From a virus: DNA of 14,831 nt. The stretch is taken from the UHGV virus genome UHGV-0322133. The stretch is one strand, 5' to 3'. The translations under genes were made by a program, and so were the position numbers. Below are positions 3,688-11,038 of this stretch, in pieces. The notes under the pieces were generated by a model that made no database searches, was not told the DNA's origin, and worked only from the letters and a program-made list of their open reading frames with translations. The first letter of the stretch is position 1. The number at the start of each line of letters is the position of its first letter.

Positions 3688-4567
3688 CGTGTTCACCCTC
3701 ACGAACTTTCAGGTAGGTATTATCGTTAAGCAGGAAATCAAATCCCTTTTTGTGCCAGACAGTTCCGCGTTGATGGTTTGGGCGCTCTTCGAACATCCAT
3801 CGACAATTTTCGCCTACGTAGCTCAAATAATTTCTCCAGTCCTGCATCGAGAACCCATGCCCGTCAAGCTGGCGGGTTATCACTCCGGCTTTGCGCCAGA
3901 ACGTTCGGATCTGGTTTTTACGCTTGTCATTCAGTGCGCGGATTCTTGGAGCTTCAGGAAGGATTTCGTGGTAAGCATCGACAACATCCTGACAGCTAAC
4001 GGAAGGTTTTTTCTTGTCAGACTTTTTGTCTGCTGTGGCACTCTCTAATACGTCAGTATTAGAGATATTATTTATATTATTGTTTATGGACAACTGTTGG
4101 ACAACCGCTGGACAATCTCCGCTGAGAGCCGTGCCATTACTGGTGTTTGCGTTGGACAACCGTTGGACAACCGTTGGACAATTTTTTGACTGAAAATCGT
4201 CATATTTAACGATTGTAAACAGGCTAAATTTCTTCCCCATCGCGCAAATATTAAGCATCCCTTTCGACTCAAAAGTCCGTAATAAGCTCCGAACTTTGTT
4301 GTCGGGGATGAATGTTTCTCTGACCAGCGACGGGCGTCCAGTTATCATCTGACCGCGATCAACAGTTATCGGACCGATATCCGTATTGACGACAGTAGAT
4401 TCGTGATTAGCCTTGAGGATTAAGTGAAGCCAAAGATGTACTGCCTGAGAGTCCTTATAGAGCCTGCTGTCCATAAACTGGCGGTGTATAGAGACATACC
4501 CCATACTGGATGCCTCCTGATGTTGTACAGGGTTATGCCTGTAATCAGCTAACTTAACGACGCCCAT
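3677..4567 (-). CDS. replication initiation protein, lambda O / P22 gene 18 analogue
   Basis: Sits directly upstream of and overlapping the helicase gene; central part of the coding sequence contains the iteron array. Alternative start at 4504 (AGGAGG RBS) is equally plausible. Confidence 0.75.
   Translation of the reverse strand: MGVVKLADYRHNPVQHQEASSMGYVSIHRQFMDSRLYKDSQAVHLWLHLILKANHESTVVNTDIGPITVDRGQMITGRPSLVRETFIPDNKVRSLLRTFESKGMLNICAMGKKFSLFTIVKYDDFQSKNCPTVVQRLSNANTSNGTALSGDCPAVVQQLSINNNINNISNTDVLESATADKKSDKKKPSVSCQDVVDAYHEILPEAPRIRALNDKRKNQIRTFWRKAGVITRQLDGHGFSMQDWRNYLSYVGENCRWMFEERPNHQRGTVWHKKGFDFLLNDNTYLKVREGEHDDR
4086..4186. repeat. origin-of-replication iterons inside the initiator gene
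   Basis: Five or more copies of TGGACAAC(N)G in two clusters (4086..4118 and 4149..4186), flanked by AT-rich sequence at 4040..4085 and 4180..4210; ori-lambda-like arrangement. Confidence 0.7.
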
Positions 4568-5147: not shown

Positions 5148-6500
<1,353 letters not shown>

Positions 6501-6693: not shown

Positions 6694-6865
6694 AGCATTC
6701 AAAGCAGAAGGCTTTGGGGTGTGGTGAAGGGTTCATGGATGGGAATATGTCGCACGTAAAGCGGCGAGGCCTGCGGAACTATTGCCGAATTGAAGTCGGC
6801 CGAAGCAGGTCGAAATGGGTCTCCCACCTACCACACCACCAAAGCTAACTGACAGGAGAATCAAG

Positions 6866-7198
6866 ATGGATGCACAAACACGACGCCGCGAACGTCGCGC
6901 AGAGAAACAGGCTCAATGGAAAGCAGCAAATCCCCTGTTGGTTGGGGTAAGCGCAAAACCAGTTAACCGCCCTATTCTCTCGCTGAATCGCAAACCGAAA
7001 TCACGAGTAGAAAGCGCACTGAATCCGATAGACCTTACAGTACTGGCTGAATACCACGAACAGATTGAAAGCAACCTGCAACGTATTGAGCGCAAGAATC
7101 AGCGCACATGGTACAGCAAGCCACGCAGTGAAATGGGTGTGACTTGTTCAGGCCGCCAGAAACAACGCGGAAAATCAATTCCAGCTTATTACGATTGA
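6866..7198 (+). CDS. N: N antitermination protein, lambda type
   Basis: MDAQTRRRERRAEKQAQWKAANPLLVGVSAKPVNRPILSLNRKPKSRVESALNPIDLTVLAEYH matches recalled lambda N including the arginine-rich motif; RBS ACAGGAGA. Confidence 0.9.
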   Translation: MDAQTRRRERRAEKQAQWKAANPLLVGVSAKPVNRPILSLNRKPKSRVESALNPIDLTVLAEYHEQIESNLQRIERKNQRTWYSKPRSEMGVTCSGRQKQRGKSIPAYYD

Positions 7199-7528: not shown

Positions 7529-7852
7529 ATGGAAGCATTAGTAGTAGAGCGAAGCGAGGATGGCTACTGGACGCACCCAGAATACGCCAACCTGTTTGGG
7601 GATAGAGAGGTAATTTCAGCTGATGAGTTCAGATCTTTCTGCAAGCAGCATGGCATTGAATCATCAATTGTTGAAATGGAAAACGACAACAATCAAACGG
7701 TAATTGACGCGTATTTTGAAGATGGGAATCCAAACATCAGTGGATGGGAGCCAAGCATGCCAGATGGAGAAGGATGGTTTGTCGGTTCGATTCACGATAC
7801 AGAAGACGGTCCGATCTGCGTTTGGTTCAGGAATGTAGATAAGGCAGAATAG
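7529..7852 (+). CDS. hypothetical strongly acidic protein (107 aa)
   Basis: RBS GAGGTGAGAT; by my count about 24 Asp/Glu against about 6 Lys/Arg. Confidence 0.6.
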   Translation: MEALVVERSEDGYWTHPEYANLFGDREVISADEFRSFCKQHGIESSIVEMENDNNQTVIDAYFEDGNPNISGWEPSMPDGEGWFVGSIHDTEDGPICVWFRNVDKAE

Positions 7853-8076: not shown

Positions 8077-8211
8077 ATGATGCACTTTCAGCTCGCGGGT
8101 AGCGGCGTCATGTCCGCTTTCTACCCGCACGAATCTGAATTATCACGCCGAGTTAAACAATTAATCAGAGCAGCAAAGAAACAACTGGAGGCGTTATGCG
8201 CAATGAAATAG
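8077..8211 (+). CDS. cIII: CIII-like protein (FtsH inhibitor that stabilises CII), 44 aa
   Basis: MMHFQLAGSGVMSAFYPHESELSRRVKQLIRAAKKQLEAL resembles lambda CIII core (AGWPVAGCPSESLLERITRKL); RBS AAGGAG; internal start of ORF 7972..8211. Confidence 0.7.
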   Translation: MMHFQLAGSGVMSAFYPHESELSRRVKQLIRAAKKQLEALCAMK

Positions 8212-8348
8212 CCATCAATCACCAGATGCTTCGTGCTGCACAAAACAAAGCAGTAATAGCCAGATTTATTGGTGATTCAAAAATGTGGCTTGAAGCAAAT
8301 AAAGCGATGAAATCAGCTATCAACCTTCCGTGGTATCGCAGGAAATGA
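8196..8348 (+). CDS. kil: Kil-like host cell-division inhibitor (50 aa)
   Basis: Below the ORF-track cutoff. MRNEIAINHQMLRAAQNKAVIARFIGDSKMW...; IAxFIGDxKM motif as recalled for lambda Kil; RBS GGAGG; immediately after cIII. Confidence 0.6.
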   Translation: MRNEIAINHQMLRAAQNKAVIARFIGDSKMWLEANKAMKSAINLPWYRRK

Positions 8349-8429
8349 GTTTTACAGATAACTGGTCAGACGAAGAATTCATTCGTCAGATGAACAAAAT
8401 GCTCAATCAGCACAAAGAGAAGGAGAAAG

Positions 8430-8741
8430 ATGATGATTCTGACTCTGAATGATAAGCGTGAAATATCGCAAATAATCGCAAGTTTTACTGATGAAGATTA
8501 CGAGCGAATCAACAGTGAAGTTGATCGCCTCTGCAAACGTTGCGACCCAATAAGCGAAATGCTTCGCTCATATAAACCAGATGAACACACTAAGGACGCT
8601 ATCGACTGGCTGGAAGATGATGACTGTAACTATCAGGAAAAAGCCGCTGAATGGTTCTGGGATGCAATAACCGAAAGAGTTAAGGCTGAATATGCCTTCG
8701 CAATATTCAAACGCAGACACATTTTTGGAGAAGCAGCATGA
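8430..8741 (+). CDS. hypothetical acidic protein at the gam position (103 aa)
   Basis: RBS AAGGAG; stop overlaps recT start (ATGA); acidic, no family recognised. Confidence 0.6.
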   Translation: MMILTLNDKREISQIIASFTDEDYERINSEVDRLCKRCDPISEMLRSYKPDEHTKDAIDWLEDDDCNYQEKAAEWFWDAITERVKAEYAFAIFKRRHIFGEAA

Positions 8742-9649
8742 GCAATATCGTTGAATTCGTTAAACAGCAGGAGCAGTTATTCTGCGGAGCATTGACTGAA
8801 CAGACGGTGACATGGGCTAAGGAAAGCCAGTTTGCAATTCAGTATTTCCAGAAAAACGATTACCTGGCTAAAACAGCACTGGCAAACCCAACCAGCGCAC
8901 AGAACGCCATCATCAATGTTGCGGCGATCGGTATCACCTTAAACCCGGCTAGCAAACTGGCTTATCTGGTTCCGCGCGACGGCATGGTGTGCCTTGATAT
9001 CAGTTATATGGGATTGCTCCATATTGCAATGGAGTCTGGTGTTATCTCATGGGGTCAGGCAAAACTTGTTCATGCTAACGATACCTATGAGTCAAACGGG
9101 CTTGATAAAGCACCAACCCATAAATACAACGCCTTCGGTGATCGTGGTGATATCGTTGGCGTTTACTGCACAGTTAAGACGCCAGCAGGTGATTATCTAA
9201 CGGAAGAGATGAGTCTGGCTGAAATTGAGGCTGTAAGGAAAACAAGCAAGGCGGCATTCAGCGATAAAGGACCATGGGTAAATCACTGGAATGAGATGGC
9301 GCGAAAGACGGTCGTAAAGCGTGCAAGCAAGTATTGGCCTAAGGCATCACGTCTTGATAGTGCTATTCACGTACTAAACGAAGAAGAAGGTGTGTGGACT
9401 GAACCAGTTATGCCGCACAAATCAGAGGAATATATCCGCGAAGATGAACGGAAACGCCAGCAGGAAATTATGGAAAAAGCACAACTTCTTTGTGATGAAA
9501 TGGCTCAGGCAGAAAACATGGATGATTTGAAGCGATATTTTGCAGAAGCATATCGCCTGACATCTGGAATGAAATTGCAGCAGAACGTACAAGCCATTTA
9601 CATAGAATGCAAAGCGAAACTGGAGGTTGCCAGTGAGCAAACTATATGA
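8738..9649 (+). CDS. recT: RecT-family single-strand annealing recombinase
   Basis: GPWVNHWNEMARKTVVKRASKYWP matches RecT core (GPWVTHWEEMAKKTAIRRLFKYLP in Rac RecT as recalled). Confidence 0.85.
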   Translation: MSNIVEFVKQQEQLFCGALTEQTVTWAKESQFAIQYFQKNDYLAKTALANPTSAQNAIINVAAIGITLNPASKLAYLVPRDGMVCLDISYMGLLHIAMESGVISWGQAKLVHANDTYESNGLDKAPTHKYNAFGDRGDIVGVYCTVKTPAGDYLTEEMSLAEIEAVRKTSKAAFSDKGPWVNHWNEMARKTVVKRASKYWPKASRLDSAIHVLNEEEGVWTEPVMPHKSEEYIREDERKRQQEIMEKAQLLCDEMAQAENMDDLKRYFAEAYRLTSGMKLQQNVQAIYIECKAKLEVASEQTI

Positions 9650-10115
9650 AATAGCCAATGAATACGCAAAATTGATGGATTCAGATTTAGAGCCAGAGAT
9701 GATTGCTGACACAATAGAAGGCATGGAAGGAGAATTTACCGATAAAATAGAGCAACTTCTTGCCATTATTAAAAATGAATCTGGTTATGCTGAACGCCTC
9801 AAGGACGAGGCAAAGTCACTAAATGAGCGAGCCGCAGTAATTCAAAATAAGATTGACAGCATTATGGCGTATATAGCGTCATCGCTTGAAATGGTTGGCA
9901 AGAAAAAGATTCGAGCAGGTATTCACCAGGTAACAATCCGCAAACCGTCAGAAACTGTAGAAATCATCGACTCAAGCGCCCTTCCTCCTGAATACGTTGA
10001 GTTTGAAACGACAATTAAAGCCGACAAACTGGCAATCAAACACCAACTAAAAGCAGGAATAAATATCCCCGGTGCTCAACTCAAAGTTGGGAAACCTTCA
10101 CTTCTTATCAAATAA
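9633..10115 (+). CDS. Gp157-like protein (siphovirus Gp157 family), recombination-module partner
   Basis: GTG start 6 nt after GGAGG (track start 9627 is TTG); VSKLYEIANEYAKLMD N-terminus and predicted coiled coil; directly follows recT. Confidence 0.6.
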   Translation: MSKLYEIANEYAKLMDSDLEPEMIADTIEGMEGEFTDKIEQLLAIIKNESGYAERLKDEAKSLNERAAVIQNKIDSIMAYIASSLEMVGKKKIRAGIHQVTIRKPSETVEIIDSSALPPEYVEFETTIKADKLAIKHQLKAGINIPGAQLKVGKPSLLIK

Positions 10116-10126
10116 CGGTATCGCCT

Positions 10127-10441
10127 ATGAAAAAGACTCCATGGGAGAAATGGGAAGTCGATTTCTTGCGCGAAGTGGCGGCGACAATGCCAGTTGAAGT
10201 TATCGCTGAAAAACTGGAAAGGACTGAAAAAGCAGTAATGGCGAAAGCAACAAGGATTGGCGCTGACATTGTTAGCCGACTTCGTGGAAGACGATGGACA
10301 AGAGCCGAAGTATCACTTTTCGGTAAGTTCTCCGCAGAAGAAATAGCAATTGCAACCTGCCGATCAATTTATTCAGTAAGAGCTATGCGATACAAGCTAA
10401 AAAAACTCGATGAAGAAAGAGCAGGCATACGAATAAATTAA
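10127..10441 (+). CDS. hypothetical protein with two internal W-x3-E...helix repeats (104 aa)
   Basis: Segments [26 protein letters not shown] and [24 protein letters not shown] look like a tandem duplication of a small helical motif. Confidence 0.6.
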
Positions 10442-10457
10442 CAAAGAGGAATTAATC

Positions 10458-10622
10458 ATGAGAGGACTTGCATACAATCCCGGCATTCTTCCGGCAGAAA
10501 TGATTATTCGCCAACGCGTAAAGCCAATGCCATCGAGAGAGGAATTGCTTAAAAGAAAGAGTTTCGGTTCTGTTAATGACAACAAATATCTGAATGCGAT
10601 GTGGCGGAGTGGGAAGAAATGA
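10458..10622 (+). CDS. small hypothetical protein (54 aa)
   Basis: Below the ORF-track cutoff. RBS AAGAGGA; stop overlaps next start (ATGA). Confidence 0.4.
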
Positions 10623-11038
10623 AGCAAATGACACTAATTGAGATGGATGGATTTCTGAAAGGTAAATGCATCCCACGAGATTTAAAGGTTAACGAAACAA
10701 ACGCTGAATATCTGGTGCGTAAATTTGCTGAAGCGGAGGCCAAGTGCGCGGCGCTGGCAGCGGAGAATGAGCTGGCTCGTAAAGCAGTTCAGGCATTCTG
10801 CGATGTTGTTGGCGACAACACAGAGGTTATCTGCGAGGAGGTTGGGAGAGATGGCGTTCTGGTTATTTTGGAGGCCATGAAGGCAACAGGAAATATGCCT
10901 GCCACCGATGCTTTCCTGGCTGAAGTACGGGCGCAGGGGGTAGAGATGATGCGCGAACATCCATCAATCAAACTTTGCTCTTTGACGCACATATGTGACG
11001 AGTTAGCCGCCCAGATTCGCAAAGGAGGCAACCAGTGA
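10619..11038 (+). CDS. hypothetical protein (139 aa)
   Basis: ATG at 10619 translationally coupled to the preceding small ORF; internal start of ORF 10601..11038. Confidence 0.6.

Follow-up and report, generated by a model that had tools for sequence, protein, structure and literature searches.

A predicted Gam-fold family of candidate RecBCD inhibitors encoded between kil and recT in lambdoid phages

The 14,831-nucleotide stretch of UHGV virus genome UHGV-0322133 analysed here (the window) comes from a lambdoid (P22-like) phage or prophage and covers its immunity and early-left region. The pL operon lies on the + strand, and the gene block is 96-98% identical to phages Kapi1, HK140, mEpX1 and Gally (Table 1). 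Within this operon, an open reading frame (ORF) that begins with an ATG and runs from 8430 to 8741 (+) encodes, as called, a protein of 103 amino acids (aa), termed ORF103. A preliminary description made from the sequence characterized the product as acidic and its stop codon as overlapping the recT start, and both properties are confirmed: the isoelectric point (pI) is 4.65, 24 D+E against 15 K+R residues give a bulk net charge of about -9, and the TGA (8739-8741) overlaps the recT ATG (8738-8740) as ATGA (8738-8741). That description also assigned ORF103 to the slot between kil and recT; the position is borne out by the identities of Kil (PF06301) and RecT (PF03837), but the slot holds two ORFs, orf35 and then ORF103. 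As developed below, ORF103 is probably a highly diverged Gam-fold inhibitor of a host nuclease, and would represent a third sequence family beside lambda Gam and phi80 GamL.

Table 1. Features of the immunity and early-left region, with coordinates numbered from the first nucleotide of the window
Feature	Coordinates	Strand	Evidence or remark
cro	5148-5495	-	
cI	5467-6099	+	
N	6815-7198	+	
107-aa very acidic ORF	7529-7852	+	phrog_1372 (function unknown)
cIII	about 8077-8211	+	
kil (FtsZ inhibitor)	8196-8348	+	PF06301 1.7e-20; phrog_2055 1.2e-35; left neighbour defining the "gam slot"
orf35, 35-aa acidic ORF (pI 4.4)	8345-8452	+	phrog_17766 3.3e-15; annotated in Kapi1
Shine-Dalgarno AAGGAG of ORF103	8420-8425	+	7 nt before ATG 8433, 4 nt before ATG 8430
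ORF103, acidic protein predicted to be all-helical, proposed RecBCD inhibitor	8430-8741 (probable start 8433)	+	phrog_3486; predicted lambda-Gam-like fold
Coupling junction	8727-8741	+	GGAG (8727-8730) in the last ORF103 codons (G-E-A-A), then ATGA overlap with recT
recT (single-strand annealing protein)	8738-9649	+	PF03837 3.1e-32; phrog_148 8.9e-92
Sipho_Gp157 / "Mu Gam-like end protection" gene (gp157)	9627-10115	+	PF05565 1.5e-36; PF07352 (Mu Gam) weak, 0.0089; phrog_253; overlaps recT 3' end

ORF103 is a real gene and not a chance frame, given its full-length match to phrog_3486 (function unknown; 3.7e-59), its homologues, a confidently predicted structure (predicted local distance difference test, pLDDT, 91.9) and its presence in 265 E. 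coli genomes. The protein is probably 102 aa long, because the second ATG (8433) is the start used by the homologues and by the Kapi1 annotation and is better spaced from the upstream AAGGAG. Searches of Pfam, PADLOC and PDB sequences with ORF103 and with its family profile returned only noise, and a literature search found no paper describing the family (phrog_3486).

HMMER, run exhaustively against 1.84 billion representative proteins, recovered about 30 full-length homologues (~100 aa) with 29-81% identity to ORF103. The named ones all belong to Enterobacterales (E. coli, Salmonella, Cronobacter, Erwinia and Rosenbergiella), and every source labels them "hypothetical". The gene is carried by phages such as HK140, mEpX1, Kapi1 and SEN22, and 265 of 5,426 complete E. 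coli genomes (about 5%) contain the full orf35-ORF103 cassette; tblastn searches with two divergent family members found no isolated phages beyond the same 19 records. The scan also returned long, eukaryote-type saposin-repeat proteins (P0039, P0055, P0062 and P0059; up to E 3.5e-13 against ORF103), whose matches run through repeated "...WLEDG..EKEIC..." helices and which were judged spurious, reflecting helical or compositional similarity. Among E. coli prophage variants, one (P0025) fuses the orf35 N-terminus to the C-terminal half of ORF103, apparently through deletion between the two KDDD/EDDD-coding stretches, and two others (P0022 and P0003) have replaced C-termini; all three may be decaying prophage copies.

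Comparison with phage Dewey connects this slot to Gam. Homology between Dewey and the window extends through cIII-kil at 92%, ends at the kil stop codon (8351) and resumes 3 nucleotides (nt) before recT (8735-10732; 2 kb, 96%), and in place of the intervening 383 bp, which comprise orf35 and ORF103, Dewey carries an 80-aa ORF and a bona fide Gam (PF06064, 1.5e-50). A single slot ahead of the same RecT and gp157 can thus be filled by either ORF103 or Gam. More broadly, the order at the homologue loci, cIII-kil-X-recT-exo (where X is the ORF103 homologue), matches the cIII-kil-gam-bet-exo arrangement of lambda. Cronobacter phage ENT47670 (49% identity) has kil-orf33-X-recT-exo, and Erwinia phage Midgardsormr38 (39%), a Rosenbergiella contig and another enterobacterial chromosome (31-35%) encode cIII, a short Kil, X, RecT and a YqaJ exonuclease. 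ORF103 itself is the promoter-proximal recombination-module gene of the pL operon, between kil and the annealing gene, and the same order recurs in 9 further loci. No second candidate inhibitor was found in the ENT47670, Erwinia, Rosenbergiella and other Enterobacterales modules, and no gp157 in the modules of most of the distant homologues. The recombination module of the window (8738-10115) consists of RecT and gp157 only and has no exonuclease gene, whereas most of the distant relatives lie in modules combining RecT with a YqaJ exonuclease (compared in loci L003, L004, L007 and L008).

Despite its position before recT in the window, the ORF103 family is not RecT-specific. In Salmonella phage SEN22, the gene behind the cassette encodes a RecE-like PD-(D/E)XK nuclease, and in two metagenomic contigs (L011 and L012) the family member is followed by a phrog_2489 "exonuclease" and then by gp157. 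What remains constant is the junction: an overlap with the next gene (ATGA, TAATG or TGATG) together with a Shine-Dalgarno sequence in the tail of the family member was found in 11/11 loci examined. The conserved E-A/V-A C-terminus of the family is probably kept by dual coding, since in all of these loci its codons double as Shine-Dalgarno sequence and spacer for the gene that follows. For the first, coupled gene of such varied modules, a module-level function, namely host-nuclease inhibition, fits better than that of a partner-specific cofactor.

The start of orf35 overlaps the kil stop and its end overlaps the ORF103 start. The two genes travel together as a 397-bp cassette (8345-8741), which is 96.5% identical in SEN22 and is the only stretch of this region that SEN22 has in common with the window; in ENT47670, a related 33-aa ORF stands in the orf35 position. 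The first ~50 nt of orf35 (about 17 codons) are common to other modules, occurring in 1,099/5,426 E. coli genomes, and match phrog_2123, and the match of phages HK97, HK022 and mEp235 to the window extends to about 8394, inside orf35. Because this 5' part is common to other modules, a mosaic junction is placed inside orf35. A weak N-terminal likeness also links orf35 to P22 Arf (WSDEEFI vs FSDEEFI, pairwise E 0.005).

An AlphaFold2 model of ORF103, built from a 31-sequence alignment without templates, is confident and all-helical (predicted TM-score, pTM, 0.79). Its helices span residues 6-17, 21-35, 40-47, 54-64 and 66-102, and those of a GamS model from the same pipeline span residues 2-37, 41-54, 59-68 and 70-90; the two therefore have the same helix order and break points, and the four collinear helices of the GamS fold are present in the ORF103 model. 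Among 48,164 chains, the top structural match of ORF103 is GamS, the protein predicted from gene order: the best Foldseek TM-scores and probabilities belong to GamS chains (2uv1_A, TMt 0.69, root-mean-square deviation 2.7 Å, probability 0.75), which account for 6/39 of the matches listed. A Foldseek search of the BFVD viral models returned nothing significant, the best hit being a 107-aa entry (E 0.033). Like lambda Gam/GamS (PF06064, phrog_259; PDB 2UUZ, 2UV1 and 5MBV), ORF103 is encoded by the first recombination-module gene after kil and before the annealing gene. The two proteins are of the same size (98 aa for GamS, 102-103 aa for ORF103), both are acidic, and they have in common a DDDxxFQE motif and a Pro after helix 1, at about 15% identity in the structural alignment. 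They differ in that ORF103 lacks the N-terminal extension of the long lambda Gam isoform and in their partners, Bet for lambda Gam and RecT or a RecE-type protein for the ORF103 family.

At the sequence level, the resemblance is faint. Whereas ORF103 has no match to PF06064 (Gam) at E<=1, an hhalign comparison of the family and Gam alignments pairs T54-D78 (TKDAIDWLEDDDCNYQEKAAEWFWD) with Gam S58-Y82 at 36% identity (P 0.0011). Scored with the hidden Markov model (HMM) of the family, GamS reaches 9.2 bits, and ORF103 reaches 8.4 bits with the Gam HMM; just 0.2-0.4% of shuffled sequences attain these values in the two directions. A three-way MAFFT alignment of the ORF103 family, Gam and phi80 GamL is collinear, with a common Pro ending helix 1 that corresponds to the near-invariant Pro40 of the ORF103 family. 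This faint signal is insufficient on its own to establish homology, yet it is in register with the predicted structural match.

The phi80/Lula GamL protein (phrog_1050) offers a second comparison, in that it is small (93 aa), is encoded directly upstream of a RecT-type annealing gene, as is ORF103, and has a weak collinear likeness to ORF103 in the N-terminal half (LTxxD+xE...LTDE). An hhalign comparison of the ORF103 family with phi80 GamL covers 86 columns at 23% identity (E 0.0052), but with a probability of just 7%; the HMM score is 4.3 bits (shuffle p 0.033), and the PHROGs differ. The phi80 gamL gene is preceded by the antitoxin-like modifier agt (mog; 322 aa, phrog_1376), whereas the window has no comparable ORF and only kil and the 35-aa ORF lie upstream of ORF103. 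According to its record, phi80 gamL encodes a RecBCD/SbcCD inhibitor. As cited in a recent census of lambdoid recombination modules, phi80 GamL is far from lambda Gam in sequence but has a Gam-like predicted fold (Rotman et al. 2012, cited in PMC12315714).

Several results weigh against a Gam-like RecBCD inhibitor. Small helical bundles yield many chance structural matches, and no Foldseek match to the ORF103 model has a significant E-value (all >1). The N-terminal helix is kinked at residues 18-20 in the model and straight in Gam, and the C-terminal helix exceeds that of Gam by about 12 residues. None of the 31 family members reaches PF06064 even at E<=10, a family-profile search of 5.8 billion proteins returned no Gam-annotated (PF06064) protein, and the hhalign probability for the family-Gam comparison is only 21%. 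A second RecBCD-directed function might also be redundant in a module that already encodes gp157, an objection that is weakened because Dewey has a true Gam together with gp157 and HK639 reportedly has GamL together with MuGam. The structure of Gam gives the helix differences their significance: its N-terminal helix is a straight element that plugs the single-stranded DNA channel of RecB, and the protein is a dimer with acidic side chains at the positions of duplex phosphates (PMC5218532). On balance, we consider it highly probable that ORF103 is genuinely related to the Gam fold. The preliminary description had called the protein unrelated to Gam, a statement that is contradicted by the predicted Gam-like fold and the faint, in-register sequence signal.

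The analysis establishes the gene itself and its family, the charge of the product, a confident prediction of a Gam-like fold, a conserved and coupled position and exchangeability with a true Gam; by analogy, we infer that ORF103 would dimerize, bind RecBCD and inhibit it, and RecBCD inhibition is rather likely on these grounds. The net charge of -9 is as expected of a DNA mimic and suggests such a mode of action. ORF103, the first recombination-module gene, would be expressed early from pL in translational coupling with the next gene, and its product may dimerize into a small, acidic, helical mimic of a DNA end. By analogy with Gam, this dimer would bind and block the DNA-entry face of RecBCD, such that linear phage DNA ends and RecT-bound intermediates could survive; recombination by host RecBCD would give way to the phage pathway, which runs through RecT. 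An earlier suggestion that ORF103 is a candidate functional analogue of RecBCD inhibitors is thus strengthened by fold, synteny and the exchange of Gam for ORF103, although not in the Abc2-like form in which it was also put forward.

The presence of both ORF103 and gp157 in one module raises the alternative that ORF103 is a Gam-fold DNA mimic aimed at another target, such as SbcCD, a restriction or defence nuclease or another DNA-end-binding hub, with gp157 handling RecBCD and DNA ends. ORF103 has the fold and acidic charge of a DNA mimic, DNA mimics can be retargeted, SbcCD is named alongside RecBCD in the phi80 gamL record, and the kinked N-terminal and longer C-terminal helices are unlike those of Gam. 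Yet the RecT and YqaJ modules of most of the distant homologues encode neither gp157 nor another inhibitor, leaving the ORF103 homologue as the sole RecBCD candidate, and the co-occurrence of gp157 with a true Gam in Dewey implies no different target; we regard retargeting as unlikely. A more elaborate form, in which the retargeted mimic acts alongside gp157 against another nuclease or defence hub (e.g. SbcCD or a RecBCD-guard system) with orf35 as obligate partner, the two genes making up a mobile anti-defence cassette that fits the front of any recombination module, is quite unlikely.

The strictly conserved coupling to the downstream gene could instead point to a recombination cofactor for the annealing protein or nuclease encoded behind ORF103, acting in loading, complex formation or as a stoichiometric partner in the manner of P22 Arf or Abc1, with the likeness to Gam being coincidental. 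In P22, it is indeed a cofactor gene, arf, that separates kil from the annealing gene erf, and the sequence likeness to Gam is statistically weak. However, the downstream partner varies among unrelated proteins (RecT, a RecE-like nuclease and a phrog_2489 exonuclease), which argues against a partner-specific cofactor; the coincidence of the top structural match among 48,164 chains with the prediction from gene order is hard to attribute to chance, and no likeness to Abc1 was detected (P 0.47), making a cofactor role doubtful and rather improbable. The preliminary description had proposed a resemblance to P22 Abc2 (phrog_656; PDB 8B1T), a small recombination-module protein of P22-like phages that acts on RecBCD, as is proposed for ORF103, but does so by binding RecC and modifying the enzyme rather than blocking it. 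That ORF103 likewise binds RecC and hijacks RecBCD accords with its general context as a small protein in the recombination module of a P22-like (Lederbergvirus) phage. Nevertheless, no sequence or fold likeness was detected (hhalign P 0.11 over 8 columns), the proteins belong to different PHROGs, and in the P22 order kil-arf-erf-abc1-abc2 the abc2 gene lies downstream of the annealing gene, whereas ORF103 lies upstream; an Abc2-like activity is accordingly very improbable.

The same module may hold a second DNA-end or RecBCD-protection function, for which the gp157 gene (9627-10115) is a candidate. In Pfam, gp157 is tied to Mu Gam by a sub-threshold hit only (PF07352, E 0.0089), while PHROGs and PMC12315714 treat it as a Mu-Gam-type anti-RecBCD gene. 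Relatives are found in 560 phage records, mostly from phages of Gram-positive hosts and often beside Sak4 or RecT genes, and gp157 co-occurs with a true lambda Gam in phage Dewey. The Mu Gam/Sipho_Gp157 proteins (PF07352/PF05565) have the same proposed purpose as ORF103, guarding phage DNA ends from RecBCD, but are of unrelated family and fold class, and Mu Gam is reported to bind DNA ends and not the enzyme; ORF103 has no match to PF07352 or PF05565, whereas the product of gp157 does.

In their census, Zheng, Casjens, Davidson, Amundsen and Smith (Genome Res 2025, PMC12315714) classified the recombination modules of 325 lambdoid phages and, in the main text and Table 1, from which we infer how ORF103 was scored in HK140 and SEN22, recognized four anti-RecBCD types: Gam, GamL, Abc2 and MuGam. 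There, the HK140 module is given as SAP-4 and MuGam, with no nuclease and no single-stranded DNA-binding protein, and its MuGam-type gene is counted as the anti-RecBCD function; HK639 is reported with GamL and MuGam. The HK140 module is essentially the module of the window. The argument in the preliminary description that such a module needs a RecBCD inhibitor overlooked the Sipho_Gp157/Mu-Gam-like gene that the census counts in this role. SEN22-type modules are scored in Table 1 as having no anti-RecBCD gene, yet have 0/0 Chi sites, and ORF103 seems to have gone unrecognized in the census. The window contains 0 Chi sites (expected 0.4) and the 47.6 kb of ENT47670 also contain 0 (expected 1.5), counts that are compatible with phages inhibiting RecBCD instead of exploiting it but statistically uninformative because of these low chance expectations.

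The ORF103 family would probably add a new sequence family to the already known Gam-fold RecBCD inhibitors, and not something categorically new. If RecBCD inhibition is true, a "hypothetical" gene of about 5% of complete E. coli genomes and of phages HK140, mEpX1, Kapi1 and SEN22 would gain a function, and the Gam fold would become a superfamily of three families (Gam, GamL and the ORF103 family) unlinked by sequence profiles. The census would then have to be amended, with SEN22-type and RecT+Exo modules gaining an anti-RecBCD gene and HK140-type modules having two. SEN22 would fit the rule given there that Chi-poor phages carry an inhibitor, HK140-type phages would join HK639, and anti-RecBCD genes and Chi sites would show a tighter inverse relation than reported. 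On the same premise, ORF103 would provide a compact, RecT-matched Gam alternative for recombineering and a further means of probing or triggering defence systems that guard RecBCD, such as retron Ec48 and P2 Old.

Elsewhere in the regions compared, a few additional ORFs merit attention. In ENT47670 (L003), positions 4251-4406 encode an unannotated lambda-type Kil of 51 aa (...AVIARFLGDAGMWLQANK...), two ORFs upstream of the ORF103 homologue, in a stretch that the RefSeq record leaves empty. In the window, ea-type genes follow gp157 as far as xis. The 107-aa protein encoded between N and cIII (pI 4.1, net charge about -18) had no match in Pfam or PADLOC and is another candidate DNA mimic or anti-defence protein. 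Finally, a 158-aa ORF (6024-6500, +), without a match in PADLOC, occupies the position of lambda rex, overlapping the end of cI, and has a signal-peptide-like hydrophobic N-terminal stretch if an internal Met start is used; it may be a moron expressed in the lysogen.
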